64,000 bases of DNA from an uncultured Candidatus Saccharibacteria bacterium (GTDB lineage Bacteria > Patescibacteriota > Minisyncoccia > Phycocordibacterales > UBA5272), in the NCBI GenBank assembly GCA_964457775.1, contig CAYWEW010000006.1, forward strand, positions 10,805 to 74,804. The letters run 5' to 3'. Shown here piece after piece: positions 9,360 through 54,100 of this stretch (position 1 is the stretch's first letter; each line of letters begins with the position of its first letter). Below the pieces are notes generated by a model. The model was not told the DNA's origin. It saw nothing but the letters and a program-made list of their open reading frames with translations, and searched no databases. Both the position numbers and the translations under genes were made by a program.

Positions 9360-9401
9360 AATTGCCTACAATGTTGTTAATAATTATGTGGATAACTTTA
9401 G

Positions 9402-9430
9402 TGGACATATTGTCTAATTTGTAGTATAAT
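9402..9430 (+). promoter_or_regulatory. sigma70-type promoter upstream of rpoD
   Basis: TGGACA (9402-9407), a 17-nt spacer, then TATAAT (9425-9430). Confidence 0.5.
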
Positions 9431-9446
9431 CCCCGATACACGTCAT

Positions 9447-10871: not shown

Positions 10872-10880
10872 TGCATAAAA

Positions 10881-10903
10881 ATATTCAGATCAAATCTGAA
10901 TAT
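10881..10903 (+). terminator. intrinsic terminator after rpoD
   Basis: Palindrome ATATTCAGAT-caa-ATCTGAATAT followed by TTTT. Confidence 0.6.
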
Positions 10904-10920
10904 TTTTATAAAACCAAAAG

Positions 10921-10949
10921 AAAAAACACTTCTTGAGAAGTGTTTTTTC
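10921..10949. terminator. bidirectional terminator hairpin between the convergent rpoD and RRM gene
   Basis: AAAAAACACTTC-ttga-GAAGTGTTTTTT has A/T runs on both sides. Confidence 0.6.
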
Positions 10950-10972
10950 ATTGTGTGTATTTCTAATTTAAA

Positions 10973-11254
10973 TTAGAAAGCACGACGTGGACGATCCTCG
11001 CGAGGTGCGAGTGGACGAGCTACATTTACAGTAAGACGACGTCCTTGGAATTCCTGATCGTGGAACATGGCGATAGCCTTGTTTGCTTCCTCATCAGATG
11101 ACATTTCAACGAAGCCGAAGCCCTTTGAACGGTTAGTCATCTTGTCGATGATAATTTGAGCTGAAAGTACAGTTCCGGCTGCGCCGAAGTGTGCCTTAAG
11201 ATCGTCGTTAGTAGAAGTGTAAGGTATACCACCTATGTAAAGTTTTGAATTCAT
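10973..11254 (-). CDS. RRM-domain RNA-binding protein
   Basis: RNP2 LYIGGIPY and RNP1 KGFGFVEM motifs are present. The protein has an Arg-rich C-terminal tail. Confidence 0.85.
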   Translation of the reverse strand: MNSKLYIGGIPYTSTNDDLKAHFGAAGTVLSAQIIIDKMTNRSKGFGFVEMSSDEEANKAIAMFHDQEFQGRRLTVNVARPLAPREDRPRRAF

Positions 11255-11508
11255 TTATGTTTAGAAACTAATTGTTAATCTAAGCCCTAGCGCACAGTAA
11301 TACAAGTGTAGAAACAGTGTAAAACGTGGAGTTGCTTATAGACTATATACTACCATATTTTATATACAAAAGTCAATAGCTGTTGGGTAGTTATTAGTAA
11401 TTAGCTTGTAGAATATGGCTAAAATAGATTACAGATTCAAGGATTTTGTATCACATCAGAATGTCAGCACTCTTTTCATTGTATATAAAAATATAGAATC
11501 ATTGTATA

Positions 11509-11739
11509 ATGATATATATGAATAAATTTGAATCAAACCAAGGGAATGTAATAAATTTTGAAGAAAAAAAACTTGAACAACTTAAAGATACTGAAGAAAC
11601 ATTTAGAATTGCTATGGTTCAAGCAATAGAAGATCTTGAGCGAGGGCAAATTACAGAGGTTGTATTTGATGATTTGAGGTCTAGATATTTTATAGCAAAG
11701 CAAGAGCGTGAAGATTTTGAATTAAAGTTTAAAATTTAA
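11509..11739 (+). CDS. hypothetical small protein (76 aa)
   Basis: An ORF with a TGTATAAT-like -10 element upstream. No recognisable domain was found. Confidence 0.35.
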   Translation: MIYMNKFESNQGNVINFEEKKLEQLKDTEETFRIAMVQAIEDLERGQITEVVFDDLRSRYFIAKQEREDFELKFKI

Positions 11740-11774
11740 CTTTTACTCCTCAAAAAAATTCTTTGTAAAAAAAA

Positions 11775-13250
11775 TTAGAGTTTTCCCAAATCAAGCGTTT
11801 GAGTTACTCCAATATCTTTTACGAATTCATGTACGTGAGATACAACAATCATTGGACCTTGATAGTTTTTTAGTGCTTCTGCAATAACAGGGATGTGTCT
11901 AAAGTTAATGTGATTAGTTGGTTCATCAAGAATAAGTAGCCCTGGTTTTAGTAGTCTTAAATATGCGAACATAAGTAAACCTTTTTGTCCTTCAGACAAT
12001 AATCCAATTTTTGAAGCTAATTGTTCAGCGCCGAGCAACATACTCGCAGCGGTTCTTCTTAATAACTGATCGTCCAATCTTGCTAGGACTTTTGCTAATT
12101 CTTGATATGATGACTTTTCAAAATCAAGCGTAGAAAAATCTTGACGATAATATCCAACTCTTATACCATCTTGTATGGTTACACCTTTTTCCGTACGCAT
12201 TGCCATTTTTTCAAGTAATGTAGTTTTACCAATTCCGTTTGGTCCAATAATGTGTAACTTATCTCCCTTACGCAACTCAACACTTACTTTTCTTTTAACC
12301 GGTTTTCCATCATGCAAAACTTCAACTGATTCAAAATTCACAATTACACTACCAATATCTTCCTGACAATCAATAGTAAAAGGTTTTATAGTTCGATCTT
12401 CTTTACGAACATCTACTTTACTGTCTTCAAGTTCCTCGACTTCATCGCGTAACTTAGCAGCCAGCTTACGCATCTTACCTCCTTTAAGTGCAAAGAAGTT
12501 AACTTTGTCTTTGTTATTTTGAATCTCTTTTTCCAGTTGAGCGTTCGCTCGTTCAGCGCGTTCAACTTGACGCTTGATATCTTCAACTACCTTAAAGTAA
12601 TTACCAACATATTGTTCTAGTTGATATGTCTGTGTATTTATATAAACAACACCATGAGTGAAAGAGTTAAGGAAGTCTGCGTCGTGAGAAATAACAATCA
12701 CTGTTTTGTCATATGACTTCATAAAGTCAGTTAGAAGTTGTATACCTGCTTTATCAAGGTTGTTTGTTGGTTCATCCAATAATAATATATCTGGTTCCTG
12801 AATTAATGCCTGAGCAATAAGTAGGCGCCCTTTTTGTCCACCAGAGAGGTCTTTAATAGTTTTATCAAGTGGCACATTTAGTTCTACAGTTGCAAATACA
12901 CTTTGAGCTCTTTTATCAATATCATAAACTTTTTCCTTAAATGCAAGTTCCAAAAATTCTCTAACAGTAAGACTCCATTGTGTATGAGAAATGAATTGTT
13001 TCGCAAGAGCAACAGACAATCCTTGACCGATAATTACTCTTCCTTCTTCACAGTGGCGCTCACCCATAATTAGTGAAAATAGGGTAGACTTACCAGCACC
13101 ATTTGGTCCCATTAGAGTAAGCTTAATTCCTTTACGCACGACAAAATTAGTCTCAAACAGAATTGGTTTGTTTTCACTGTAATTAAAAGTAACGTCTTCG
13201 AAACGAAGAACGACTTCACCTCCAGAAGGGATTTGTTTTTCGACAGCCAT
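11775..13250 (-). CDS. ABC-F family ATPase (tandem ABC domains, no TM domain)
   Basis: Two Walker A motifs (GPNGAGKST and GPNGIGKTT). Signature motifs LSGGQKGRL and LSEGQKGLL. A coiled-coil linker is present. Confidence 0.9.
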   Translation of the reverse strand: MAVEKQIPSGGEVVLRFEDVTFNYSENKPILFETNFVVRKGIKLTLMGPNGAGKSTLFSLIMGERHCEEGRVIIGQGLSVALAKQFISHTQWSLTVREFLELAFKEKVYDIDKRAQSVFATVELNVPLDKTIKDLSGGQKGRLLIAQALIQEPDILLLDEPTNNLDKAGIQLLTDFMKSYDKTVIVISHDADFLNSFTHGVVYINTQTYQLEQYVGNYFKVVEDIKRQVERAERANAQLEKEIQNNKDKVNFFALKGGKMRKLAAKLRDEVEELEDSKVDVRKEDRTIKPFTIDCQEDIGSVIVNFESVEVLHDGKPVKRKVSVELRKGDKLHIIGPNGIGKTTLLEKMAMRTEKGVTIQDGIRVGYYRQDFSTLDFEKSSYQELAKVLARLDDQLLRRTAASMLLGAEQLASKIGLLSEGQKGLLMFAYLRLLKPGLLILDEPTNHINFRHIPVIAEALKNYQGPMIVVSHVHEFVKDIGVTQTLDLGKL

Positions 13251-26809: not shown

Positions 26810-27202
26810 TCATTTGATACCGTATACGATGCGGATGAGGGCACGAAGCGCTCTCGGGAGGTTCCGACCATTCTCGTAACGAGAACCACCGGATTGAGTG
26901 ACGCCGACAGCCATCCAGAAATCTTTTTGATTGAGGCCGATTTTTTGACGTACCTCTTTCAGCTTTTTGGGTGACAAAGGTTTGAAGTTCGGCTTCACCT
27001 TGTCGTTGTACACGAAACGAATGAGTGCACGTACGAACTTCGGAATGTTTCTACTGCTTTCATAGCGAGAACCACCGGATTGAGTGACACCCAAAGCCCA
27101 CCAGAATTTACCCTGGTTGAGCTTAAGTTTCCGTCGTCTCTCCTTCAGTTTTCCTGCTATGAATGTTTTGAAACAAGGTTTCTTTTGCCCGATTGGGGAC
27201 AT
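26810..27202 (-). CDS. single-chain tandem XRE-type HTH DNA-binding protein (two HTH repeats)
   Basis: Two repeats of LNQ(G/K)xFWxA(L/V)GVTQSGGSRYExxRN(I/L)PxxxRALIRxVY, matching the XRE-HTH pattern G.SQS.VSR.E.G.R.P. The repeat is also visible at nucleotide level (cgagaaccaccggattgagtgac twice). GC is about 50% against a genome value of about 35%. Confidence 0.6.
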   Translation of the reverse strand: MSPIGQKKPCFKTFIAGKLKERRRKLKLNQGKFWWALGVTQSGGSRYESSRNIPKFVRALIRFVYNDKVKPNFKPLSPKKLKEVRQKIGLNQKDFWMAVGVTQSGGSRYENGRNLPRALRALIRIVYGIK

Positions 27203-27735: not shown

Positions 27736-27785
27736 ATATAAAAAAGTGTAGCAGAAAAATTAAAAATATAAAATGTAAATATATA

Positions 27786-27824
27786 AAAAGCCACCGACAA
27801 GCGATGGCTTTCGGTGGAAAAAAT
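27786..27824 (-). terminator. intrinsic terminator of the island family GCCACCGA..TCGGTGGC
   Basis: Minus-strand RNA CCACCGAAAGCCAUCGCUUGUCGGUGGCUUUUUAUAUA. Confidence 0.65.
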
Positions 27825-27831
27825 TATTTCA

Positions 27832-28041
27832 TTAATCAGGAATTATGACATCCTTCCATGATTGTGGAATGAGTTTGCTATCGATTCCAAAACTTTTTCC
27901 GCACGCTTCACAACTTACTTCGAATGTAGAGGAGTGATGAGAAATTTCATTGTAGTGTATATCTTTTGAAAAGACACCAAGTGAAGATTTGCAACGTGGG
28001 CACTCGACTGTGATGTAATTGTTATTCTTCAAAACTTTCAT
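27832..28041 (-). CDS. small zinc-ribbon protein
   Basis: CPRC...CEAC motifs. The start is taken at MKVLKNNNY, which is preceded by GGAGA. Confidence 0.5.
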   Translation of the reverse strand: MKVLKNNNYITVECPRCKSSLGVFSKDIHYNEISHHSSTFEVSCEACGKSFGIDSKLIPQSWKDVIIPD

Positions 28042-28096
28042 TTGTATCTCCATGTGTGTAAGAGGTCAACAAACATAATGGGTGGGAGGTTTGGGA

Positions 28097-28369
28097 TTAT
28101 CTTTCTAAGGGAATGAGTATTAATCCGGGGTTTTTCCCAGTTGATTCCCAATCAATCCTGTAGCCCATTTTAGCAAAATGTTCCTCTGAATATTTTCTGA
28201 TGTATCCCAACCGCATTTTCCACCAATTATCAAAGGCAGAGAATTGAGCTGAAGCTGACCAGAAATTCATCGTCATCGGATTTTTATTTTCTGCGTCAAA
28301 TTTTGCAAGAGCATCCAGACATTCTTTCTTCCACTCGTCAGCAGTTTTCTCGGTGAGAAGGGTTTGCAT
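28097..28369 (-). CDS. hypothetical small protein (90 aa)
   Basis: TTGACA-N18-TATTAT promoter at about 28400-28430, AGGAGA RBS, and a terminator of the island family downstream. Confidence 0.5.
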   Translation of the reverse strand: MQTLLTEKTADEWKKECLDALAKFDAENKNPMTMNFWSASAQFSAFDNWWKMRLGYIRKYSEEHFAKMGYRIDWESTGKNPGLILIPLER

Positions 28370-28495
28370 TACGGTCTCCTAAAGGAACAATACTCACATA
28401 ATACAATGATTATCTATATGTTGTCAAGTTATTTAAGAGATGGGTAAATTTATTTATATTCAATAAAATAACAGTACAGTGGTTAATATATAAAT

Positions 28496-28530
28496 GAAAG
28501 CCACCGACAAGCGATGGCTTTCGGTGGTGT
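28496..28530 (-). terminator. intrinsic terminator (island family)
   Basis: The same CCACCGA-loop-TCGGTGG hairpin, followed by T-rich sequence on the minus strand. Confidence 0.6.
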
Positions 28531-28545
28531 TTAAGTTTGAGTTAT

Positions 28546-29187
28546 TCAGTAAATAATATTTGCATCATACAATGCAGTAATCAGCTTCCTTCTGTCTGGA
28601 TTATAAACAAACATTTTCTCTTTGATTTCTGAAGGTGCGAGAGCTCGTGCTTCTCCTTCTTTTTCATTCACACGATGGAGCGCGTCATAGACATCAGCAA
28701 TGGCAACAATACGGCCGTACTCACGAATCAAGAGCTTGGTAGTCTGTCTATAATTATGAAGATATTGAGGTAGAACATCAGGGTAACCATCATCTTGGAA
28801 CTTGTGATGCCAGAGCATAGCCTCTGCTGTGAAATCAAAGCGTCCACGCAAGAGTCGATATCCATCCAAAACATGGTTCTCAATTTCTTCCTGGTCTTTT
28901 TCACTCCATGTACCAACTTTACCGAGCACATCAAGACATGTCTGACATTTACCAAGATCATGTAGTGCCCCTGCAAGGAAAAGTGGTTTTGATTCATGAT
29001 GAGTAAAATTACCAATCTTCATTGCGAGCAAACCCACACGAAGTGAATGCTCGTAGTGGAAACGAGTGACTGCGCTTTTGTCTCGCAACGGTGCGAGTAT
29101 AGAGCGTAAATGATTTTGGTTGGTTGTTGTTATCCCGATTGCTTTGGCAGTTTCCCAAAACGTAACTTCCGTCTTCGATGTTTTCAT
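28546..29187 (-). CDS. stand-alone HD-GYP domain protein (213 aa)
   Basis: Motifs HYEHSLRV, ALHDLGK, WHHKFQDDGYP (HHExxDGxGYP) and IADVYDALHRV. Confidence 0.7.
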   Translation of the reverse strand: MKTSKTEVTFWETAKAIGITTTNQNHLRSILAPLRDKSAVTRFHYEHSLRVGLLAMKIGNFTHHESKPLFLAGALHDLGKCQTCLDVLGKVGTWSEKDQEEIENHVLDGYRLLRGRFDFTAEAMLWHHKFQDDGYPDVLPQYLHNYRQTTKLLIREYGRIVAIADVYDALHRVNEKEGEARALAPSEIKEKMFVYNPDRRKLITALYDANIIY

Positions 29188-29371
29188 TAGTTATTATCCT
29201 TTCTGAAATTGAACTATTTCTAATATAAAACTATATAACAGGGGGAGGTTTGTCAAGCTAATAATCTATTATTTGTGGAAAATATAATGTGTGGTCAGTA
29301 CATAAAACAAGAAACCGCCAAAGCAATTTCTTGCTAGCGGTTATGAGAATATTGTAAAACTGATTTCTAAT

Positions 29372-29647
29372 TCAACGCAATATATAACTGTGAAGAAACT
29401 GACCAACGAACCCCAAGTTGTTCACATGGTACCAAGTTGTCCACGCTGAAACAAAAAAGAAAGGAGTGGAGATCAAAATAATCATATGGGGGATTCCGTC
29501 CAGTCCTCGACCTTTAATGTCTATTCCAACATAAACATAAAAACATGTGTTGAGCACTGTCAGTGTGATCAAAACTATAGTGGAAAAAGTCGAGGCAACG
29601 AACCAACCTGCAAAAACGAGAGCAGTAATCACAAAAATTTGTAACAT
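29372..29647 (-). CDS. small integral membrane protein (3 TM)
   Basis: Hydrophobic protein. It lies 11 nt downstream of the preceding gene and is probably bicistronic with it. Confidence 0.45.
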   Translation of the reverse strand: MLQIFVITALVFAGWFVASTFSTIVLITLTVLNTCFYVYVGIDIKGRGLDGIPHMIILISTPFFFVSAWTTWYHVNNLGFVGQFLHSYILR

Positions 29648-29658
29648 CTATACTCCTC

Positions 29659-29892
29659 TTATTTGAAATGAATAGTTAGTTCTGTGGGGTCATAGCATCC
29701 TACCGTTCCATCTTTATGCTTGACTTCATAGCACAGTCCATGAGAATCGTGGTGAGCTATGACTTCACCTTCAACCCCCCACTTACGTCGTTTTTTTCCT
29801 TCTTCAGTCCATGAATCAGCATTTGCTTCATCTTCTTGAGTGGTTCTAACGAGAGTTCCAGGAGAAATGGGTGGGTATTTTCCCGCGTTCAC
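29659..29892 (-). CDS. hypothetical small protein (GTG start)
   Basis: Strong promoter TTGACA-N17/18-TTATAAT at 29941-29970 and an AGGAA RBS. No recognisable domain. Confidence 0.5.
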   Translation of the reverse strand: MNAGKYPPISPGTLVRTTQEDEANADSWTEEGKKRRKWGVEGEVIAHHDSHGLCYEVKHKDGTVGCYDPTELTIHFK

Positions 29893-29940
29893 TGAGATTC
29901 CTTTCTAATCGATTATGTTTAAATGAAAAAGAACAAAAGC

Positions 29941-29970
29941 ATTATAACAATAAATATTAGCTTTTGTCAA
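29941..29970 (-). promoter_or_regulatory. sigma70 promoter for the 29659..29892 unit
   Basis: Minus strand TTGACAaaagctaatatttattgTTATAATgcTTTTGTTCTTT. Confidence 0.6.
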
Positions 29971-30058
29971 TTTTTAAATGATATCACGTGATGGAAATTA
30001 TTATATAAAACAAGAAGTCGCCACTAAGGTGACCCTTGTGGCGACTGTTGCAAAAACT

Positions 30059-30244
30059 TCACGATACAAGTTCTTTAGTGGTAGGAATTGTATTCTTACC
30101 ACAGTCAGGGCATTTTACTCCCTTTAACCCAACACTAATTAGTGTGGTAAACTTTTTCCATCTGGACTGTTTCTCCAAAGATTCAACAATACGACGACCT
30201 TCCCACTGGCAGTGAGGGCATTTTAGTCTTTTTTCAAGAGTCAC
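30059..30244 (-). CDS. small zinc-ribbon protein (probable GTG start)
   Basis: CPHC...CPDC motifs. The ORF-track ATG overlaps the -10 box, so a GTG start after GGAGAAAGAT is used. A terminator lies downstream. Confidence 0.5.
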   Translation of the reverse strand: MTLEKRLKCPHCQWEGRRIVESLEKQSRWKKFTTLISVGLKGVKCPDCGKNTIPTTKELVS

Positions 30245-30374
30245 ATCTTTCTCCAAAACGAACAATAATCTCATAATACAATGATTGTATATTTCTTGTC
30301 AATTATATCAAATAGCAGTAATTATATTCATAATACTTGATTGGAAGTAAACGTGAAAATGTCGGGAGCAAATA

Positions 30375-30410
30375 GAAACCACCGAACGCGCGGTGGCTTT
30401 CGGTGGGGAG
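30375..30410 (-). terminator. intrinsic terminator (island family)
   Basis: Minus strand CCACCGAA-agccaccgcgcg-TTCGGTGG followed by TTTCTATTT. Confidence 0.6.
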
Positions 30411-30418
30411 TTGATTTC

Positions 30419-30634
30419 TTAATCATCGCCAAAAAGTGCATCGCCAATGGCGGCGCCAATGAAGTCTCCTCCGACCAGTCCGCCGATTAACGTGCTATCA
30501 GTTACAGCACCAACAACGAAGCTTGTAAAAAAATCGCCATCATCTTCGTATGACACTTGACGGTATGCAACTGGACACTTGTGACTTTGTCCAGGATGAA
30601 GGATAGTCCCGCACCTGCATTTTTTCTGACTCAT
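30419..30634 (-). CDS. small peptide with an N-terminal Cys/His cluster and a C-terminal glycine-zipper hydrophobic segment (71 aa)
   Basis: MSQKKCRCGTILHPGQSHKCP ... GGLVGGDFIGAAIGDALFG (GxxxG repeats). GAGG RBS. TTGACA-N17-TATACT promoter. Confidence 0.5.
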   Translation of the reverse strand: MSQKKCRCGTILHPGQSHKCPVAYRQVSYEDDGDFFTSFVVGAVTDSTLIGGLVGGDFIGAAIGDALFGDD

Positions 30635-30700
30635 GGTAACCTCATGGATTATTAAAGAACAAAAATAGTATACCATAATATACTGAATCTGTCAACAAAG

Positions 30701-30770
30701 TTCCAATTAGTAAACAAGCTCCAAACCTTTGAAAAGGGGAAGTATGGGAGTGTGATGAGAGCATAAAAAC
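30701..30770. repeat. conserved promoter-upstream element, copy A (degenerate)
   Basis: Aligns to the 68-nt family GCTCCAACTGGTAAACAAGTTCAGAACTTTTGATTGGAGGAAGTATGAGAATGTGGTGAGTATATAAAA. Confidence 0.5.
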
Positions 30771-30822
30771 AAGAAACCGCCAGATCATACTGATCCAGCG
30801 GCAGAATTGCTTTATTCATATA

Positions 30823-31365
30823 TCAAGAATTAAAAGCAAATCTCCATATTCGTTGTAGTACACTAATCCTTTTACCGTAACGTAAACCATTATCGTATTC
30901 GTAACCATGTTTAACTAATGGCAACGTACCCTCTTCAACAAGGGGAATGCACGATTCACCACCAAGTTCAATAACCCCAGGTATATCAATCCAATTACTC
31001 AAAGACTCTGTTTTAACCCAAAATCCGCGACCTGGATTAAAGTATGTATCAACACTTATCTCACTACTGTCATTGATTCTAATTGGCTTTAACAACATTA
31101 TCTCATTAATACACATAACGAATGCACTACTTCGAAGACGGTACACAATGCTGCAGTGTAGAAGTGCTCCAACTGTACAAAACGGTATGATTGCATCATA
31201 TTGTGCCCTATACTTCTGTTCACCACAGCAACCAGCGATAATGAGAGCAATTACAACCTTGTGACCCATGCTATCTTCTAGGTCGCAAGAGAAAACTGTA
31301 TTATTACCTTCACGTATTTCTGCTTTTCGTACAACGAAATCTCGGTAGATATCTTCGTGTACCAT
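30823..31365 (-). CDS. hypothetical protein (180 aa) from MVHEDIYRDF
   Basis: AAGGAGA RBS and TTGACA-N17-TAGAGT promoter. The longer ORF-track start would run through the promoter. Confidence 0.5.
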   Translation of the reverse strand: MVHEDIYRDFVVRKAEIREGNNTVFSCDLEDSMGHKVVIALIIAGCCGEQKYRAQYDAIIPFCTVGALLHCSIVYRLRSSAFVMCINEIMLLKPIRINDSSEISVDTYFNPGRGFWVKTESLSNWIDIPGVIELGGESCIPLVEEGTLPLVKHGYEYDNGLRYGKRISVLQRIWRFAFNS

Positions 31366-31431
31366 GACGAGTCTCCTTAATTTAAAGAACAAAATTACTC
31401 TATAATTTCGGGATTTGATTGTCAAGTAGTC

Positions 31432-31500
31432 GCTCCAACTGGTATGCAAGTTCAGAACGTTTGATTGGAGGAAGTATGAGAATGTGGTGAGTATATAAAA
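31432..31500. repeat. conserved promoter-upstream element, copy B
   Basis: gctccaactggtatgcaagttcagaacgtttgattggaggaagtatgagaatgtggtgagtatataaaa. Confidence 0.7.
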
Positions 31501-31541
31501 GCAAAACCCCACCTAAGCAATGATTGCTTAGGTGGAGTGAA

Positions 31542-31901
31542 TTAAACCTGATATTCTTGTAAATTAAGTAAGTCAAAAATTTTCACTCGTACAAGATTTT
31601 CAATTTGCTCAGGAGATTCGTTACCTTCAAGAACAATGATTTTCTCTTGAGTAACTCCATCTTCCAACAATAGAGCAACGTATCCTTCACGCGTCTGACC
31701 AGAAGTGAATGTCGTATATTCTCCAATGACTACAACAACATTATCTTTGCCAAATCTCTTAACACGCATTAATCCGAGTACATCAGTTGAAGCAAAATGC
31801 AGACGTTCCAAACCCCAACCACCAACTCTTCTGGAAAGAAGGTCAAATTTTTCTCGGTTTTGATCTTGAACACAAATTATCTCAAACATACTGGGTGGCA
31901 T
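31542..31901 (-). CDS. hypothetical protein (119 aa)
   Basis: GGAGG RBS. Promoter TTTACA-N17-TATAGT with an embedded palindrome. Terminator CCACCTAAGCAAT-cat-TGCTTAGGTGG downstream. Confidence 0.5.
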   Translation of the reverse strand: MPPSMFEIICVQDQNREKFDLLSRRVGGWGLERLHFASTDVLGLMRVKRFGKDNVVVVIGEYTTFTSGQTREGYVALLLEDGVTQEKIIVLEGNESPEQIENLVRVKIFDLLNLQEYQV

Positions 31902-31924
31902 ATTGCCTCCGTTATTAAAAGAAC

Positions 31925-31954
31925 AAAAACACTATACCATAGTATAGTGTTTTT
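31925..31954. promoter_or_regulatory. 12-6-12 perfect inverted repeat (candidate operator) overlapping the -10 of the 31542..31901 promoter
   Basis: AAAAACACTATA-CCATAG-TATAGTGTTTTT. The -35 (tgtaaa on the plus strand) is at 31954-31959 and the -10 at 31931-31936. Confidence 0.6.
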
Positions 31955-31965
31955 GTAAATATCAA

Positions 31966-32034
31966 GCTCCAAACAGTACACAGGTTCAGAACATTTGATT
32001 GGAAGAAGTATGAGAATACGGTAGGTATATAAAA
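31966..32034. repeat. conserved promoter-upstream element, copy C
   Basis: gctccaaacagtacacaggttcagaacatttgattggaagaagtatgagaatacggtaggtatataaaac. Confidence 0.65.
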
Positions 32035-32075
32035 CAGGAAACCGCCGAAGCAGTCCTGTTTTGCTTGGCGGTGAA

Positions 32076-32216
32076 TCACCCCATTGCGGCACGTGACTTG
32101 CCGGTGTAATAGCAACCGCTGTTGCCGCCGGTGTAGGTACGTCCATCGTGGTAGTAATCGCAGGCAACTTCGTATTCGTAGTTGCCACATCTTTGCCAAA
32201 AGGTGACGGTGCTCAT
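32076..32216 (-). CDS. 46-aa Cys/Tyr/Gly-rich peptide
   Basis: MSTVTFWQRCGNYEYEVACDYYHDGRTYTGGNSGCYYTGKSRAAMG. GGAGA RBS. Perfect TTGACA-N17-TATAAT promoter at 32248-32276. Confidence 0.45.
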   Translation of the reverse strand: MSTVTFWQRCGNYEYEVACDYYHDGRTYTGGNSGCYYTGKSRAAMG

Positions 32217-32247
32217 CAAAAATCTCCTGGTTAAAATGACAAATACC

Positions 32248-32276
32248 ATTATACATAATATAATAGTATTTGTCAA
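32248..32276 (-). promoter_or_regulatory. consensus sigma70 promoter of the 46-aa peptide unit
   Basis: Minus strand TTGACAaatactattatattatgTATAAT. Confidence 0.65.
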
Positions 32277-32282
32277 TATGGT

Positions 32283-32349
32283 GCTCCAACTGGTAAACAA
32301 GTTCAGAACTTTTGATTGGAGGAAAGTGAATGTAACTGGTATATAAAAT
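32283..32349. repeat. conserved promoter-upstream element, copy D
   Basis: gctccaactggtaaacaagttcagaacttttgattggaggaaagtgaatgtaactggtatataaaat. Confidence 0.7.
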
Positions 32350-32401
32350 AAAAAAAACACCCCGATCTATGTCGGGGTCGCTTTGTGAAGTGGAGCAGGG
32401 C

Positions 32402-32758
32402 TTACGCCGAATCTTCTTCAAACTCGAGTTCGAATTCTCGATCGCCGAGAGGGTTGTTGTAGTCCGGCATGAACCGCATTGATCGCCTAGCGTCGACTGG
32501 CGAGTAATGGATCTCATAGTCGTTATCATCGCCGTTGCGGGTCTCGTCGTAGATCAGTCGTTGGAGTTCTTCGGCTTTTGGCGTGATAATCCGCAAGCTC
32601 TTCTCTTCGCCCATTCGGCCACGCTGAACCTTCGAGATTTCATACGGCTTACCACGTTGCTTGAGGAATTCGATCATCGCCTCGCGCTCACGCTCGTAGT
32701 TGCCCACGAACACATCCAAACAGTGGGATGTCTCAACTTCGGTGCTGGTTTCGCTCAT
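32402..32758 (-). CDS. acidic hypothetical protein (118 aa), GC-enriched
   Basis: Start at MSETSTEV preceded by AAAGGAA. GC is about 50%. Terminator CCCCGA-catagat-TCGGGG followed by T8. Confidence 0.5.
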   Translation of the reverse strand: MSETSTEVETSHCLDVFVGNYEREREAMIEFLKQRGKPYEISKVQRGRMGEEKSLRIITPKAEELQRLIYDETRNGDDNDYEIHYSPVDARRSMRFMPDYNNPLGDREFELEFEEDSA

Positions 32759-32887
32759 GATACTATTCCTTTCGTATTGAACAATGAGTACCAACAACAC
32801 TAATACAGTATTATATTTTTGTCAAACAAGTTCTAAACCCTAATTGGGTAAATGAAAAACACCTTATGTAAAAGGTGCTTTTCAAGT

Positions 32888-32926
32888 GCTCCAACTGGTA
32901 AACAAGTTCAGAACTTTTGATTGGGC
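32888..32926. repeat. conserved promoter-upstream element, copy E (half-copy)
   Basis: gctccaactggtaaacaagttcagaacttttgattggg. A further degenerate fragment lies at 32821-32852. Confidence 0.55.
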
Positions 32927-33032
32927 AAAAATAAAATAACAACATTTAATTATAACCTTTACAAATTAATAAGTAGTGATAGTATAAAGAATAGTAGTTA
33001 TGTTTAATTTCATTTTTATTCGGAGATGAATA

Positions 33033-33221
33033 ATGTTTTACTTGTATAAAACTTTGTTTCGTAATGTGATTACATCTTTCCTACTTATTAATTTGCTTCT
33101 AATTGCAAATTGTAGTGGTGAGAGCGATGGACATGTTTGTGGTTGTGGTTGTGGACGATGGATACCAAAGGAACGTCCCAGTCAGTGTGATGAAAATGGG
33201 AATTATAATGGAAATTATTAA
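33033..33221 (+). CDS. small Cys-rich exported (lipoprotein-like) peptide, 62 aa
   Basis: Signal peptide with LIANC. CGCGCG cluster. GGAGA RBS. TTTACA-N16-TAGTAT promoter. Terminator AAAAAACACC-atta-GGGTGTTTTTT at 33230-33262. Confidence 0.4.
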   Translation: MFYLYKTLFRNVITSFLLINLLLIANCSGESDGHVCGCGCGRWIPKERPSQCDENGNYNGNY

Positions 33222-33419
33222 TTCATTCCAAAAAAACACCATTAGGGTGTTTTTTATTTTATCAGTTCGATGGGTGATCGTTCAGCTAGTTGGTATTTTA
33301 TTTCATAACTTCGTTATTCATAAAACACCCAACTTCTCGACTCCGAGGAAAACCAACAAAATTTTTTCTAAAAATATTTGAGCTCAATTTTTAGAAAGAA
33401 ATTGTGTAGACCGTTTTCC

Positions 33420-33468
33420 GTTCGATCCCTACGTAAAGAAGGTAATCCTTCTTTACTACCCACCGAGC
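33420..33468 (+). repeat. inverted partial copy of the tRNA-Asn 3' end (T-arm plus acceptor) interrupted by a 24-nt palindrome
   Basis: GTTCGATCCCTAC[GTAAAGAAGGTAATCCTTCTTTAC]TACCCACCGAGC against the tRNA sequence GGTTCGATCCCTACCCACCGAGC. TAC is duplicated at the insertion point. Confidence 0.7.
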
Positions 33469-33505
33469 CAAATGAAAAACACCCCGTAAGGGATGCTTTT
33501 CATTT

Positions 33506-33576
33506 GGCTCCAACTGGTAAACAAGTTCAGAACTTTTGATTGGAGGAAATATAAAGAGGTGTTGAGTATATAAAAA
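33506..33576. repeat. conserved promoter-upstream element, copy F
   Basis: gctccaactggtaaacaagttcagaacttttgattggaggaaatataaagaggtgttgagtatataaaaag. Confidence 0.7.
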
Positions 33577-33610
33577 GAAAGCCACCGAATGCGCGATGGC
33601 TTTCGGTGGT
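33577..33610 (-). terminator. intrinsic terminator (island family) downstream of the pilin gene
   Basis: AAAGCCACCGAATGCGCGATGGCTTTCGGTGG. On the minus strand the hairpin is followed by a T-run. Confidence 0.6.
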
Positions 33611-33627
33611 GTTTGTGAATTAACTGA

Positions 33628-33945
33628 TTACTTGTTTGCAGGGCATTCACTGAATTCGTAGTTGAACAGTATAGAAGTATCCAGACAGTACTCTTTTCGG
33701 GAGCCGTCTTTGTTTTCAACCTGCAGGACTGATTTGTCAAAAATATTTCGCTGAGTGGTAAGAATCTTTGAAACACTGGAATGCGAAACTTGAAGCTCGC
33801 GCAGGGCGCTATCGGTCTGAAACCAAAAGTTTCCCTGACATACTGTTTTTATTGCAAACACCCAACCAACAACGACAATGATGAAAATAATTACAAAGAC
33901 AGTCAAAAGTTCAATCAAAGTAAAACCGCGATTATGACTTTTCAT
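33628..33945 (-). CDS. type IV pilin/pseudopilin-like protein (prepilin N-terminal methylation motif)
   Basis: MKSHNRG/FTLIELLTVFVIIFIIVVVG is a class III signal with G-F-T-L-I-E. Two Cys residues lie in the C-terminal part. Confidence 0.7.
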   Translation of the reverse strand: MKSHNRGFTLIELLTVFVIIFIIVVVGWVFAIKTVCQGNFWFQTDSALRELQVSHSSVSKILTTQRNIFDKSVLQVENKDGSRKEYCLDTSILFNYEFSECPANK

Positions 33946-33981
33946 ATCTCACTCCTCAAAATAGTTAATGAACAATAGAAC

Positions 33982-34011
33982 AAAAACACTCTACCATAAT
34001 AGAGTGTTTTT
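33982..34011. promoter_or_regulatory. 12-6-12 perfect inverted repeat (candidate operator) overlapping the pilin promoter
   Basis: AAAAACACTCTA-CCATAA-TAGAGTGTTTTT. The -35 (tgtaaa) is at 34011-34016 and the -10 at 33988-33993. Compensatory changes relative to the 31925 copy preserve the dyad. Confidence 0.6.
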
Positions 34012-34023
34012 GTAAATAGCTGA

Positions 34024-34095
34024 GCTCGGTGGGTAGGGATCGAACCTACGACCAATTCGTTAACAGCGAACTGCTCTACCGCTGAGCTACCACCG
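34024..34095 (-). tRNA. tRNA-Asn (anticodon GTT)
   Basis: Minus strand: acceptor TCGGTGG/CCACCGA, D-arm GCTC-AGCGGTA-GAGC, anticodon stem GTTCG/CGAAT with loop CTGTTAA, T-arm GTAGG-TTCGATC-CCTAC, discriminator G. CCA is not encoded. Confidence 0.85.
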
Positions 34096-48112: not shown

Positions 48113-51100
48113 TTATTCTTCGGCTTTAATACACCCTAAATCCTTAATTCTATCTCTTGTTAATTTGTCTGCTTCACCTGTAACTGTAAGACTGTTGTCC
48201 TCCTGGAACTTTTTAACTGCTTTTTTTGTTATATTTAAGAAGTTGCCAGTTACTTTAGTGTTGAAGTATCCTTGCTTTCGGAGATAATACTGTAATTGTG
48301 ACACTTCACCGTTAGTATTATTATCTCTTTTACCATATAACATTTTACTTTTCATGTTAGTACACATTGATTCAGTAAAAGCGCCGAGTACCATGCCATG
48401 ATTTATGTTTCCAGAATTAACAAGCGCGAGAGTATTGTCATTGTAAAGTGTTCCGACATTACCACCTCCACCTCTTCTTCGTGTTGGAGTAGTTGTTGAT
48501 TGTTGTGTTGTGGTAGTAGCAGTAGATTCAGTTATAGTGCTTGTGGACGTAGGACTACCATCTGCTCCACCACCAGTCACTGTCGTAGTTGCTACAACAG
48601 AAGGAAGTTCAAAATTTAGAGTTCTTCCTCCTCCTCCTCCACCTGCATTATATCTAAATATTCTAGACATTGTAGTAATCTGAGGTGTTGCAGAATAAGT
48701 AAAATCAGAAGCGTCCCCATTATTTGACAACCTAAAACAGTAAACCGACCCTGGCAATATATCTCCAGTTGAGCGTATTAAGTACTCAATTTCAGTGTAT
48801 TCACCTTCGTAAAGAACCGTAGGACGAGAAAGACTGTTAAAGGTTTGCATTCTTCCTGTTCTAAACACTTTTCCATTTGGAACACTTATTCCACTTGAAT
48901 GTGTTGTTGACGCGCTATCACTTACATATGAAGATGTGTCTATTTTGAAATGTTCATTAGTATAATCACTTGGTCTTGGCACAGCAGTCCATGAAGTACA
49001 AGAACCATATGAGTACTCCAGCTGATAACGTTTATTAATTAATGATGTTGTGTGGTTGGTAACAACGAAACGCAATCTAATTTTGTCTCCAGTAATAAAA
49101 TCACTAGCCATTGGCGTGTTTTCTGCAATATTATAGGTAGCAGATGATTCATCTCCATTGTCTTGTCTTAGACGATAGGAAGTTACAGTTACATTTGATG
49201 CACCCACATTAGGAGTAGAAGGAGATCCTTCAATTGATGAGACTGCGGTATAGACAGTACCGCTCTTGGTAAATACTTTGAAGTAATATGCGGTACTATT
49301 AGATAATCCAGTAGCTATACATGAGTCATAAGTAGATGTAGCTATTGTAGAATCGACACAGGCAACAGTTGCAGATCCTATAATGTCATTTGTTGAGTAT
49401 GTTGCCCCATTAGATGGACTATCAGTAATTGTCTGGGTTGAACGTAGGACTATTACTTGATTAAATGACGGGTTAGATGGAATAGTATAATCAATAGTTG
49501 CTTGAGAGTTGTTTGGGGTAACAGTCAAGTCTTCGAGATTGGTAGATCCCGATTCCTGGGAGCTTGCTGTAGGAACTGTTGGAATCATGATGGATTCAGC
49601 GAATGCTGCGTAGATGTAAGTTGCTCCTGTTGAATTATACCCACTACCATTGTCTCGCGCTTTAAATCCATTAGCAAGAATATCTATTCGTCCGGTTGTC
49701 GTATCATCCGCATTTGATGAGTTAGCGTACAACAAATAGTTTGCCGAGTTGTAACCTGCACGAGTTGTGTCGAATATATTCCAATGCTCTGTTCCACCAT
49801 CAATACGCTTTGTTAAAATATATCTCGGCTTGAATCCTGTATAAACAAAAGCTCCGTCTGAATTTCCATTACCGGTGTAACTTCCGAATTTAGAGTACCC
49901 AGGCACTTCTGACCAAACATAAGCAACATAGGTGTACCCACTAGCGCTAACACCAGTATTACCTCCAAGGTTCAAAACTGAATCAGTTGATGTTGCGTAA
50001 AATCTTGTAGAATCGTTCGTTAGTGAAGCTGCCTGACTAAGAGCTAACCAATATGTTCCTCCTCCAAAATTACTATTCCATGTGTACCAATTCTCTGCGC
50101 CACCGGACCTCGCTTTTACAATAGCAAAATTTGGTGCAGTGCCCAACCCATGACCGACGGTCTTGTTGTCACCATTACCAGAACTTGACCCTGAATATGA
50201 AACAATAGAGAATCCCGCAGTAGGATTAGCTGATACTGTTGAAGTAATGGTTCCTGATGTGTCTGTGGTCGTAGCCCCACTCGCCTTCCAATTCCACGAG
50301 ACAAAGGTGTCTCCATTGAAATTCACACGACCTGACCCAGCGTTATCAGTACCAACAGTAAATCCGTCGGAATTAAACGATGTTAATCCATACCCTGAAG
50401 CTTCTGCTGTTTCAGTATTTGTTGTATCAGATTCAAGATGTTTTCGTGCTCCACGTACAGAATCAATAATATTACTACTTGCTGATGTGTTTCTATCTTT
50501 TATCCAGACTAAATCTGGTTGAAAATCAAGACCTGTTATTGATTGTGTACTTCCCGTCCCCGTATATGTCGCCACATCAAAATACAGGTTAGGTTTTAAA
50601 ATTACCGGGGTTGATAGATTTGCAGTAGAGAGAGATTTGAATCCTTCGGGTGGAGTATAGGTAAATGATTTTTGACCGAAGTTGGCAGTAAAATAATTTC
50701 CTCCACCATACGAAGCCATTGCTGGAACAAAAACACCAGATAAAGAACTAAAGGCAACCCCCTGTGACACTCCATTTTTATAGAAAGTTAGCGTTCCAGC
50801 ATCCATATCTAAAGCTGTTCCAATAACATCACCATTAGTATAGGTGGAGCCATAAGCAGTACCAGAATTACTGGTATACTTTTGCCCATTTTGATCGTAT
50901 GAATAACTTAACGAATCACTTCCAGGGAAATATCCATTGGCATAGGTACTAAGACTTGCAGGAGAGATGCCAACATCAGTTCCAACTGATACAGCTCCAA
51001 TATTAGTTTCCCAGTACCATTTCCCAGAAGAAACACCAATGGTTCCTAATTTTGTTTGACTATTTGCAGTAAGCGCACTAAAACGTAAATTACCAAGAGA

Positions 51101-54100
51101 AAGTGTTCCTGCGCTCAAAGTTAAAGCGTTAAGTGTAGCAAAATTATTAAGAGGAGTATCCGTCACTTGATTGTTGGTAGATGTTATCCCACCGTTTGAA
51201 GCCCAGTTATTTGAATTACCTGAACTGTCTGCGCCGACTTGATTACTATTACTGAAATTCAGACGGAATCCATTATTTCCATATGAGCCAATGTACTTCT
51301 TTGGAATCCAATTGCCTGTCGAGGAAGAAGTCTCTCCGAATGATGCTGGTGTTAACTGTTGTCCATCAATAAAATTAACATCCGATAAATAGCCGTCATA
51401 ATAATGTGCACCTGTAGCTTTTGCAACTTGATGTGATATTGCAGAATTAAAACCTTGTGAATAATTTAAAGCGGGGTAATTTGCAGAAGAGAAGGAAGTT
51501 ATTTGCGTCCCATTAGAAAAGATTTTGACTCTATCCGATGATACGGCTTGAGTTGTGTCCACTGCAAGCACAATATGATACCAAGCAGATGGGTCACGAA
51601 AAACTTGTGTAGTGTTTAGATTACTACTAACTGCAGCATTGTTATAATATTGAATATGGTCATTTAAATCAAAAATAAGTTCATCCGTTGTACCTGGTGC
51701 AGCAAACAATGCTGGATAACCAGACGTCAATTTACTGCGCTTGACCCAACCTGACCATGTAAATTTTTTATTATCAGTTGGAGTAGAAAATGTTCTGTTA
51801 AGATACTGACTCTGCGCACTATCAAACATAAGTGAATTCGTAAGGCTGTCAGTCGTGAAGGTAGAGTCAGATGAGTAAGCAGTACCATAGGAGTTGGTAG
51901 CATAAGCACTATAGTAATAAGTGGTAGAAGTAGCGAGACCAGTAATAGATACAGTGAACACTCCAGTAGTTGTACCTGTACCTGCTGTACAGTTAGTGAT
52001 AGGTGCAGGAGTAGAACCATAACACACCCCACGTGATGTTATGTTAGAACTTCCTATAGTGTCTACTGTTCCACCTATTACTGCAGTTGTTTCTGTTGTC
52101 GATGTTGCTGTAGGAGATGAGAGTGTGGGGAGAGATGGTACTGTTGGGACCATGACAGATTCAGCAAAGGCGGCGTAGATAAATGTGCCACCATTGGTGT
52201 TTAGATATGATATTGATGACCTAATCTTAAAACCATTAGACAAGATATCTCTATCATACGCATGATCAGGACTCTCCCCTTGTGAGAGGTTTGGAAAAAG
52301 TGGATTATAATTCACATTGTATGAGTCTCTTTTTGTATCAATAATATGCCAATCATTTGTAGAATCTGTTCTTTTAATCATTATCCAACGTGGTTTAAAT
52401 CCTGTGTAGATGAATGGTCCATCCGCAGAGCCATTACCAGTATAACTACCAAATTTTGAGTAGCCTTGAACTTCAGCAAATGAGTAAGCAACTAGATCTG
52501 CACCACTAGCTAAAGGTGTAGAGGTTAGGCCAAATGTTGTCGTTGACCATGCCCCACTCCAATTTGATGAACCATTTGATTGTGCTGCTGTTGTTGATAA
52601 ATCAAGATAATAGTCAGCGCCTGTTAATTTTTGATGCCAAACATTCCAGCCTGTAGTACCAACATTGTCTCTAGACTTGAATATCACCATTGTTGGGGTT
52701 GCGTTCAATCCATGACCAACTGTTCCAGTAGAACCAGATCCTGTAAATGTAGCAACAGAGAAACCTGCGGTTTGATTTGCAGAAACAACACTTGTGACAG
52801 TCCCAGAAGTATTTGTTGTTGTGGAATTGCCTGCTTTCCATAGCCAATCAACATAGGTAGCCCCATTTGCGTTATTATCACTATCATTTGCATTAAGGGT
52901 GTACCCATCTGCTGTCGAAGAGAAAGAGTGAAGCGATGGTGCTCCACCATTATATGCTTCATATCCTGTAGTGTTAGAGCTTAGTGACTTACTCCCACCA
53001 AAACCTCGTACAGCATCCTGAAGATAGTGGTTTGTAGAACCACTACGTCCTTTACTCCATATTAAATCAGGCTGAAACACTAATCCTGATTTTGTATACC
53101 CTATTGCTGTGCCCGTACGAGTTACAACATCAAAATGTTGATTTGGTTTTAAAATGGTCGGAGCCGGGAGGTTTGCAGTAGAGAGAGACTTGAATCCTGT
53201 TGGTGGGGTGTAGGAGAAGGACTTTTGACCGAAGTTAAGTGTAGCTGATTCAGTTTCAGCATCAGGATTTACTCTAAAAATCGGGAAATAACCGGTAACA
53301 CTGGAAGATGCGAAAGTATGACCTCCACTATTTGTTACTGGATTACTTCCATTGTTCCATGTTCCATTTTTACCAAACCAAACTTTTCTAAGTGATGGAC
53401 TTACGGCAACCATTATAGTGTCACTTGTAGTATAACTAACACCATCTGATGTAGAGCTACCAGGAATTTTGATATAATCCCCTCCACCATGAGCAATTAC
53501 TGCAGCTGCATCACTACCAGAACCAGCAGATGTTTGAAATATATTTCTATTGGTTTCTATGTCCCAGTCAACAACACCAACTTGGCTTGATGAAATAGTT
53601 CTAGTAGTATTATTTAGTTTTGCTTCAAAATATGTGTCAAAATCTTTTATTGGCATGCTTGCCATAACACCATAAATATTATAGTAGCCACCACCAAGTG
53701 AGGAAGTTAAATTACCCTTAGTTAATGAGAGCGAGGAAGATCTCTGAAGTGGGTTTAATGTTGCAAAGTTATTAAATGGAGTATCAATAAATTGATTCGT
53801 TGTTGAACTCATACTACCGTTCGTTGTCCATGTATTTGCTGTAGTGTGTGTAGAGTCAATTGGTGCAGTATCAAGACCAAGAGCAGTACTACTACTGAAA
53901 TTAAGATGAAATCCATTTACTCCATAAGTGCCTTGATATGATTTTGGAATCCAGTTGCCAGTGTTACTGTCTGATTTTCCAAAGTAACTTGGAGTAAGAG
54001 CTTGGCCGTCGACGAAGTTAACATCGGCCATGTATACATCGGAGTAATCAGCGGAATCCATTTTAGAAATATAATGGGCGTTCGCAGCATTAATACCACC

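Follow-up and report, generated by a model that had tools for sequence, protein, structure and literature searches.

In a stretch of 64,000 nucleotides (nt) from an uncultured Candidatus Saccharibacteria bacterium (NCBI GenBank assembly GCA_964457775.1, contig CAYWEW010000006.1, positions 10,805 to 74,804 of the forward strand; the whole stretch is called the window here, and positions are counted from its first letter), the 3' end of a tRNA-Asn gene occurs a second time, in inverted orientation and split by a hairpin, on the other side of a small cassette with a type IV pilin-like gene. The question raised by this locus is what kind of event leaves such a copy beside a tRNA gene. Patescibacteria (the Candidate Phyla Radiation, CPR) have tiny genomes, and the gain and shuffling of their accessory genes are poorly understood. 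Comparison with other loci showed that the feature in the window is a truncated copy from an apparently undescribed family of structured units of approximately 150 nt in Patescibacteria.

The tRNA-Asn end and its inverted copy

The inverted copy described in the first-pass annotation of this DNA is real: the last 22 nt of tRNA-Asn are present without mismatch (22/22) on the + strand at 33420-33468, and the two tRNA-end copies are 555 nt apart. A search of the window with the pattern GTTCGATCCCTAC-N(0-30)-CCACCGAGC resulted in two exact matches, namely the tRNA end itself (34024-34045, - strand) and the inverted copy (33420-33468, + strand), while no match was obtained in 100 shuffled sequences. 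The inverted copy is interrupted by 27 nt, composed of a hairpin (hp1) and a repeated TAC, and the break coincides with the T-stem/acceptor junction. The interrupting sequence had been taken for a perfect 24-nt palindrome; it is instead a 10-base-pair (bp) stem with a 4-nt loop, and it matched the window only once, on the + strand, when up to 3 mismatches were allowed. A second, terminator-like hairpin (hp2, CAAATGAAAAG) adjoins the copy, and its base is formed by the GAGC end of the inverted copy, which pairs with the GCTC start of a 77-nt element present at several junctions of the adjacent gene array. Folding of hp2 was better on the - strand, through G.T pairs (-32.3 vs. -25.9 kcal/mol).

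No further copy of the tRNA-Asn 3' end was detected in the 64-kb window with up to 3 mismatches, and the segment bounded by the two copies encodes the pilin-like gene only. The suggested reading of the pair as attL and attR is not supported: neither a distal copy in direct orientation nor an integrase in the bounded segment was found. The copy could also be the remnant of a second, convergent tRNA-Asn gene sharing a bidirectional terminator with its neighbor, and the + strand copy is indeed followed by a terminator-like hairpin, as expected at the end of a gene. Nevertheless, only one tRNA was reported by ARAGORN, Infernal found no second one between 27000 and 34200 at E values up to 10, the match begins abruptly at the T-loop, and the partner arm in the family described below is complementary to the tRNA end instead of representing a tRNA 5' half; such a pseudogene is therefore highly improbable.

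Two other candidates were discarded. A possible second arm or direct-repeat remnant at 33267-33280 obtained an alignment score that was reached by 8% of shuffled sequences and by many other sites of the window. A primer-binding site was considered because the window copy reads GAGCCA, as if derived from a mature tRNA ending in CCA; no other copy does so, and the agreement was attributed to chance.

A family of units at tRNA ends and cassette junctions

Copies of the unit were found beside tRNA-Asn, tRNA-Lys, tRNA-Leu and tRNA-Cys, as well as within cassette arrays. Read along the tRNA strand, a complete unit is composed of six consecutive parts: the regenerated 3' end of the tRNA itself; the terminator hairpin hp2; the tRNA 3' end in inverted orientation, interrupted by hp1 where the T-stem meets the acceptor (with a loop that usually reads CTGC on this strand and GCAG on the other); the motif AATA(C)GG; a conserved helix, GGGGTCGCGAAA...TTTTGTGACC, whose tip varies and whose G.U pairs are formed on the tRNA-parallel strand; and, starting inside the T-loop, a displaced second copy of the tRNA 3' end in direct orientation. 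The complete unit is a mini-insert in a tRNA gene, located between a regenerated and a displaced tRNA end, and this arrangement is the signature of tRNA-directed integration. The distal copy in direct orientation, which was sought in vain in the window, was present in these complete units of relatives, where it had been predicted by an origin through duplication of the tRNA 3' end; that part of the annotation was borne out.

In locus L029, tRNA-Asn is followed by a 44-nt terminator hairpin and then by GCTCAGTGGG-AATAAACCAAActgcTTTGGTTTAT-GTTAGGGATCGAAT, and a similar arrangement with a different hp1 stem follows tRNA-Asn in L112, the inverted copy lying 44-45 nt from the tRNA in both. A metagenomic contig (L106) contains a unit after each of tRNA-Lys, tRNA-Leu and tRNA-Cys, and the acceptor part and the T part of each inverted copy match the tRNA next to it. 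Perfect direct repeats of the tRNA 3' end in this contig have lengths of 20 nt (Leu), 22 nt (Cys) and 13 nt (Lys), at a spacing of 147-160 nt, and the Leu unit has its own terminator after the displaced tRNA end. In five further loci (L009, L028, L079, L080 and L086) the copies occur within cassette arrays, and the stretches fetched contain no tRNA. Near-identical backbones were observed at different tRNAs (the Lys unit of L106 and the Asn unit of L112; the Leu unit of L106 and the Asn unit of L029), indicating that the backbone moves or recombines among tRNA sites.

The hairpin hp1 is the most recognizable part of the family. In 835 kb of fetched loci, a search for G[CA]AG loops closed by perfect stems of 8 bp or more recovered 13 hairpins, all of them (13/13) hp1 structures and every one in a Patescibacteria locus, against a chance expectation that we estimate at approximately 0.2. 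Twelve of these 13 copies, which do not include that of the window, have the loop GCAG and one has GAAG. With the window copy included, 12 distinct stems were counted among 14, all of them fully Watson-Crick (14/14), and the consensus reads GCAAGTGAC-GCAG-GTCACTTGC with a stem of 8-11 bp. Since hp1 is always located at the T-stem/acceptor junction, the earlier suggestion of a 24-nt miniature inverted-repeat transposable element (MITE) inserted into an old att remnant is excluded: the sequence is single-copy in the window, it is a position-conserved part of the unit, and its stems are compensatory in 14 copies.

No Rfam family matched the unit at either gathering or E-value thresholds in the window and eight other loci, where only tRNAs and chance matches were returned, and nothing relevant was found in the literature searched, including that on integrons and islands in Saccharibacteria and Patescibacteria. 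The 'hypervariation' described in Gracilibacteria is an unrelated coding repeat (PMC6851277). A blastn search of 33400-33620 against 50,697 phage records gave no match, and scans of IMG/VR gave two matches to the core of the 77-nt element and one to the unit pattern, which were judged to be chance matches in unrelated coding sequence. One match (L106) was obtained in a metagenome scan with a strict two-arm pattern, which was too strict for abundance to be estimated.

Fold, strand and covariation

Pairing between the inverted copy and the displaced repeat is possible in a complete unit and rebuilds the acceptor and T-stem duplex of the tRNA, with hp1 as a side branch. The tRNA-parallel strand folded better in six of the seven complete units (total of -335 vs. 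-290 kcal/mol), and it contained 22 G.U pairs, compared with seven on the other strand. RNAalifold predicted 30 pairs from the tRNA-parallel strands of these seven units, 13 of them compensatory; one G.U pair was invariant (7/7) and corresponds to an A.C mismatch on the opposite strand. A covariance model (R1) retrieved nine further copies at E<=1e-6 in Patescibacteria loci. In the alignment fitted to R1, which includes some weak matches and whose figures consequently lean towards structure, 91.5% of the cells were paired, compared with 68.7% in shuffled sequences, compensatory change was observed in 29 of the 30 pairs, and covariation reached 0.42, compared with 0.15 in shuffles and no more than 0.08 in slid controls. 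These results show a conserved, strand-specifically folded unit that copies tRNA ends, is enclosed by direct repeats of them, and is located at tRNA genes and at the cassette junctions of variable regions.

Two alternatives were considered. Template switching at the terminator hairpin of the tRNA could extend the palindrome and leave an inverted tRNA-end copy as a neutral by-product of replication, devoid of function. Such an origin would suit the long, near-perfect palindrome into which the tRNA end, hp2 and the inverted copy combine (100% over 30 bp in L106; 80% in L029), and hairpin-templated correction would automatically keep the inverted copy matched to the adjacent tRNA. It does not explain the fixed position of hp1, its conserved loop and compensated stems, nor the conserved helix with its invariant G.U pairs, the direct repeats, or the recurrence of one backbone at different tRNAs and in different genomes. 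The covariation data already disfavor it, and we regard it as improbable.

The second alternative is a structured RNA transcribed from the tRNA-parallel strand, acting either in cis as a 3' trailer of the tRNA transcript or as a tRNA-like small RNA. Its acceptor and T stems would copy those of the neighboring tRNA, hp1 would take the place of the D and anticodon arms and the long helix that of the T-loop, and the window copy would be a broken gene. Strong covariation, G.U pairs invariant on one strand, conserved motifs in the apical and internal loops, and paired 5' and 3' ends in which the acceptor and T stems of the adjacent tRNA reappear are all in line with such an RNA, as is the presence of the unit beside all three tRNAs of L106. 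On the other hand, the unit on this strand begins right after a terminator-like hairpin (a GC-rich stem followed by a T-run, identified by eye) that leaves no room for a promoter, half of the copies are inside cassette arrays far from tRNAs, the tRNA-end repeats in direct orientation are a signature of inserted DNA, the acceptor-like pairing of the ends is absent in one subfamily (L079, L080 and L086), and Rfam offers no match. A structured RNA is the main rival, though an unlikely one.

The window copy as a truncated member

The window keeps only the first half of the unit, that is, hp2, the inverted copy and hp1. Its inverted copy is split by a perfect hairpin at the T-stem/acceptor junction, as in the 13 other copies, so that the window hairpin occupies the same insertion point as hp1 throughout the family, and hp2 lies between the junction element and the inverted copy (33465-33510). 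Over 155 nt, the stretch of hp2, element and terminator has 84% identity to positions 2621-2773 of L029, a junction (L029b) that precedes a decayed unit. The window copy, which is truncated and atypical, was assigned to the family because of its architecture and context, namely the identical split point, the adjoining hp2 and the likeness to L029b. The alignment of R1 to the copy covered the 5' half alone (acceptor complement, hp1 and T complement), with 52 positions of the conserved helix deleted.

The window differs from L029 and L112 in what separates unit and tRNA. In those two loci the unit abuts the tRNA, and they serve as empty sites for comparison; in the window the pilin cassette and the 77-nt element lie exactly between the tRNA end (...CCACCGAGC) and hp2, the insert ending in ...CCAGTTGGAGC (...TTGGAGC). 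On the - strand the order from the tRNA is palindromic promoter, pilin-like gene, terminator, element of approximately 77 nt and hp2, so that the enclosed segment holds what had been reported for it (a hairpin, one copy of a repeated element, a terminator, the pilin-like gene and a palindrome over its promoter). Given that copies of the element end in GGAGC or nearly so, the position of the insert fits the insertion of a promoter-gene-terminator-element block at the GAGC end of the tRNA.

A hotspot of integration beside tRNA-Asn

The locus beside tRNA-Asn is an integration hotspot, as the first reading of this DNA had proposed. Relatives share the flanks, with PriA-Def-Fmt-PPIase-HPF-DUF975-tRNA-Asn on one side and SRPBCC-ABC on the other, and differ in the content between them, which ranges from 1.7 kb (L110 and L111) through approximately 4 kb (L113) to more than 6 kb. 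Homologues of the DUF975 membrane protein are labelled Gracilibacteria or Pacebacteria, and the best syntenic record is a Paceibacterota metagenome-assembled genome (MAG). Genome contigs searched with this protein gave no match, nor did an exact look-up of its TTG-start version, probably because another start had been called. Large serine recombinase genes (505 and 564 amino acids, aa) lie directly after the orthologous tRNA-Asn in L007 (11036-12553; likewise in L008) and in a contig of ENA ERZ1426853, and one of these two elements also carries a primase-polymerase gene. Two inversions of a whole segment were observed: in L113 the entire tRNA-to-SRPBCC segment is inverted (7833-12461), and in L029 (1-5022) the segment with tRNA and array is inverted relative to the conserved flanks.

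The inverted orientation of the window copy might reflect an attR-type scar of island integration that was inverted later, or the pilin segment might be an invertible switch between inverted tRNA-end copies. Inverted 22-nt repeats do bracket the pilin unit, whole tRNA-array inversions occur in relatives, and integrating elements use tRNA-Asn. Yet the inverted copy and its hairpin belong to every complete unit, as does the direct repeat, so that no secondary inversion is needed, and in L029 and L112, where the inverted copy follows the tRNA so closely, there is nothing to invert. Support for a switch is also lacking in that one of its repeats is interrupted by 27 nt and that the tRNA-pilin junction has one and the same arrangement in the three contigs reaching across it (L002, L003 and L005, from one NCBI assembly and two SRA samples). 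In addition, Pfam scans of 10 array and 20 flanking open reading frames (ORFs) of the window, which left out the shortest array ORFs and several large ORFs, revealed no recombinase, invertase or integrase. We consider both forms of inversion, each of which had been raised in the annotation, very improbable.

Two further observations were made at this tRNA. In L007 (10852-10988) and L008, the 5' end of tRNA-Asn and the seven bases preceding it (TAAATATTCCGTGGTAGCTC, 20 nt) recur as a direct repeat 117 nt upstream, which suggests a second type of mini-insert, on the 5' side of the same gene. Moreover, the window corresponds to two NCBI contigs of metagenome assembly GCA_013558375.1 that overlap by exactly 127 nt (33901-34027); one contig runs 4 nt into the tRNA 3' end and stops, and its partner starts after codon 15 of the pilin-like gene. 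The overlap looks like a branch of the assembly graph, possibly due to population variants of the cassette or of its junction. The stop, at 34027, is the last base common to the tRNA (GCTC/GGTGGG) and the element (GCTC/CAACTGG), and its coincidence with this point of divergence hints at an alternative junction in the population.

A possible mechanism and its weighing

We tentatively interpret the unit as a miniature, non-autonomous integrative unit whose single-stranded form would mimic the 3' end of a tRNA gene, a reading to which we give close to even, though not better, chances. The unit would be either a miniature element in its own right or the part by which such an element attaches. Pairing of the inverted copy with the tRNA-end repeat on the tRNA-parallel single strand would yield a duplex resembling the 3' end of a tRNA gene, with hp1 and an asymmetric loop as unpaired landmarks, and a recombinase provided in trans would use the folded site in the manner of integron attC and of the attP of CTX phage. 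Repeated insertions at the tRNA end would build a cassette array, older units, such as the relic in the window, being pushed away from the tRNA and decaying; a circular or alternative cassette junction should then read ...CCAGTTGGAGC/TCAGCTATTTAC.

Several results weigh against this interpretation. No recombinase was found among the scanned window ORFs or beside the arrays of L009 and L080, the large serine recombinases at tRNA-Asn in relatives come without the unit, and no circular or excised form of the unit was seen. The 77-nt element, which marks six junctions of the array, shows no fold (z about 0), unlike attC, and strand-specific G.U pairs suit an RNA as well as single-stranded DNA. The loci had been fetched through the junction element or through synteny, which biases the frequencies. 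As for the window copy itself, it scored 9.2 bits against R1, less than a spurious match in the same stretch, its hp1 loop is TAAT rather than GCAG, and the conserved helix GGGGTCGCGAAA...TTTTGTGACC is missing from it, together with any significant direct repeat. Its inverted copy is still identical to the tRNA at 22 of 22 positions although the rest of the unit is lost, which a simple decaying relic does not explain; possible causes are gene conversion with the tRNA or an event in the very recent past.

In a broader scheme, self-contained cassettes (promoter, gene, terminator and 77-nt element) and folded, tRNA-end-mimicking units of ~150 nt would both be inserted at tRNA ends; a trans-acting recombinase would recognize hairpins of single-stranded DNA, and hypervariable arrays would build up in an integron-like mode of gene capture in Patescibacteria. 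As a whole we hold this scheme to be doubtful; there is, all the same, a reasonable chance that the family marks a new gene-capture system in CPR bacteria. If the scheme were true, the 19-nt core that the junction element has in common with Chlamydiota would imply a mobile system across phyla.

The array next to the tRNA is punctuated by two conserved non-coding parts, the unit, which copies the 3' end of the neighboring tRNA in both orientations, and the junction element; neither was found in Rfam or in the literature searched. If they are recombination sites, they would represent a new way of capturing genes in a large branch of the bacterial tree that is mostly uncultivated, and if the unit is an RNA, it would define a new class of tRNA-mimicking RNA tied to tRNA genes. 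R1 and the hp1 signature can serve as markers for variable regions and for assembly break points in CPR genomes.

The cassette array and its junction element

The coordinates of the features in the window are listed in Table 1. The array, made up of approximately 13 small and mostly orphan genes, is located between tRNA-Asn and the conserved SRPBCC/ABC genes. Most of its genes have their own TTGACA-type promoter and terminator, and many are followed by TTTTATATAC and the element ending in ...CCTCCAATCAAAAGTTCTGAACTTGTTTACCAGTTGGAGC. The 62-aa lipoprotein-like ORF is the sole + strand gene of the array and shares its inter-element interval with the inverted copy. The promoter of the pilin cassette starts 7 nt past the tRNA end.

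Table 1. Features of the tRNA-Asn locus and the adjacent array, in window coordinates.
Feature	Position	Strand	Basis or remark
tRNA-Asn (GTT)	34024/5-34096	-	ARAGORN; Rfam tRNA 69.8 bits
Copied stretch, last 22 nt of tRNA-Asn	34024-34045	-	GTTCGATCCCTAC followed by CCACCGAGC
Inverted copy, part 1, GTTCGATCCCTAC (T-loop and 3' strand of T-stem)	33420-33432	+	Exact match
Hairpin hp1, GTAAAGAAGG TAAT CCTTCTTTAC (10-bp stem, 4-nt loop)	33433-33456	unstranded	Perfect hairpin on folding
Repeated TAC and inverted copy, part 2, CCACCGAGC (acceptor 3' strand, discriminator G, next C)	33457-33468	+	Exact match
Hairpin hp2, terminator-like, bidirectional	33465-33510	unstranded	Inverted-repeat search; folding z = -7 to -7.7
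Possible decayed second arm or direct-repeat remnant, TCGATGGGT...GATCG	33267-33280	+	Local alignment, no statistical support
77-nt cassette-junction element, - strand reads ...CCTCCAATCAAAAGTTCTGAACTTGTTTACCAGTTGGAGC	33507-33583	-	Repeat search; one of six copies
Intrinsic terminator of pilin-like gene	33577-33604	-	Terminator prediction; repeat family D4
105-aa gene, type IV pilin-like N-terminal methylation motif	33628-33945	-	Pfam N_methyl, E = 1.2e-6
Promoter of pilin cassette (TTTACA, 17 nt, TAGAGT)	33980-34016	-	Overlapped by 34-nt palindrome 33980-34013
62-aa lipoprotein-like ORF with own terminator	33033-33255	+	ORF list, terminator prediction
Array of ~13 small, mostly orphan genes	27776-34023	-	ORFs, repeats, Pfam, synteny
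Palindromic promoter family	29927-29971, 30653-30697, 31917-31961, 32234-32278, 33974-34018		

Copies of the 77-nt element were located at 30700, 31432, 31966, 32283, 32886 and 33507, while the other junctions of the array have a terminator only. Each copy ends in GGAGC or a near variant and is followed by the promoter of the next cassette or by a hairpin. A 19-nt core, GTTCAGAACNTTTGATTGG, was found as an exact match in 97 stretches of GTDB species-representative genomes, the majority of the carriers being Chlamydiota MAGs, followed by Patescibacteria. In Chlamydiota the core takes the form [A/T]TGGAGGTGGAGAGACGC-GTTCAGAACTTTTGATTGG, with several copies per MAG, often after a terminator and ~10 nt upstream of a start codon. 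In one Chlamydiae MAG (L033, 6275-6871), two cores flank a match to the cspA 5' untranslated region thermoregulator (48 bits, below the Rfam gathering score of 78), which suggests cassette-like units in that phylum too.

The junction unit at 32829-32924 consists of the element, a hairpin and part of a second element copy, which contributes a TTGACA box. Over 96 nt it has 95% identity to a Saccharibacteria MAG (L009, 3223-3318), and it is 89-94% identical to two other MAGs. One cassette gene shared with L009 has 78% nucleotide identity, below that of the junction unit, and this better preservation of the junction suggests recent exchange or strong constraint.

Other identities considered for the element were rejected. 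A mini-ORF was suggested by a frame ending in ...VQNF-stop in Chlamydiota and in some Patescibacteria copies, but the Patescibacteria copies conserve neither start codons nor frames. Nor could the element be recognized as an attC or dif site or as a decayed tRNA, there being no cloverleaf, no fold and no convincing likeness by eye; no attC cores (RYYYAAC/GTTRRRY) were found on reading the element, and the papers searched did not contain its sequence.

Promoters overlapped by palindromes of 30-34 nt (e.g., ACAAAAACACTCTA...TAGAGTGTTTTTGT) precede several cassettes and may constitute a shared operator; the one adjoining the tRNA also scored as terminator-like. Just past the SRPBCC gene that borders the array, a 130-aa protein with two RsaL-like helix-turn-helix domains (HTH_92, E = 2e-42) is encoded at 26810-27202 on the - strand and could regulate the palindromic cassette promoters. 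Elsewhere in the window, two adjacent ORFs of 2513 aa (48113-55654) and 2370 aa (55952-63064) were observed on the - strand.

Comparison with known systems

With MITEs and with repetitive extragenic palindromic sequences and bacterial interspersed mosaic elements (REP/BIME), the unit shares small size, lack of coding sequence, multiple copies, abundance of hairpins and a non-autonomous character. It differs from them in the absence of MITE-type terminal inverted repeats, in ends that copy the target tRNA, and in its sites, which are tRNA ends and cassette junctions. In the tRNA-like domain of transfer-messenger RNA and in the Y-RNA YrlA, the paired ends likewise form an acceptor stem stacked on a T stem; in contrast to these domains, the unit has no T-loop, whose bases are paired or replaced by a long helix, matches no Rfam family, and copies the neighboring tRNA instead of having a fixed family sequence.

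Tycheposons of Prochlorococcus are reportedly islands at tRNA genes of a streamlined genome, kilobase-scale, with a hallmark tyrosine or large serine recombinase, replication genes and direct partial tRNA repeats, their cargo gathering next to the tRNA. They resemble the present loci in being variable islands at tRNA genes of a streamlined genome; to our knowledge, neither a hairpin-split inverted copy nor a 77-nt junction element has been described in them.

Islands that target tRNA genes by means of tyrosine integrases leave a regenerated tRNA end and a displaced fragment (Islander, PMC4383910), and phage Ms6 has its crossover in the T-loop of the tRNA (PMC1762012). Similarly, the complete unit is flanked by a regenerated 3' end and a displaced repeat that starts in the T-loop, at a tRNA also used by other elements. 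Unlike these islands and prophages, however, the insert is only ~150 nt long, contains neither genes nor integrase, includes an additional hairpin-split inverted copy and a helix with strand-specific G.U pairs, and uses one backbone at different tRNAs.

The attC sites of integrons are recombined as folded single strands with unpaired landmarks (PMC2727003, PMC5027507). Like integrons, the arrays consist of small mobile gene units in one orientation, and like attC, the proposed site is an imperfect, strand-specific hairpin with more conservation of structure than of sequence, a bulged base or branch and a variable tip. An integron proper was rejected: no IntI gene was found among the scanned ORFs, the RYYYAAC/GTTRRRY cores are absent, most junctions carry the non-folding 77-nt element, the cassettes mostly have their own promoter and terminator, and the point of insertion is a tRNA end rather than attI.

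For CTX phage, the folded single-stranded attP is said to mimic the dif target of XerCD (Val et al. 2005, Mol Cell). The unit differs in its target, which is a tRNA 3' end instead of dif, in the absence of phage genes and in a recombinase that is only postulated. The two systems nevertheless have a plan in common: two spaced, inverted, target-like sequences can fold to mimic the duplex target, and the integrated form keeps this pair beside the regenerated target.

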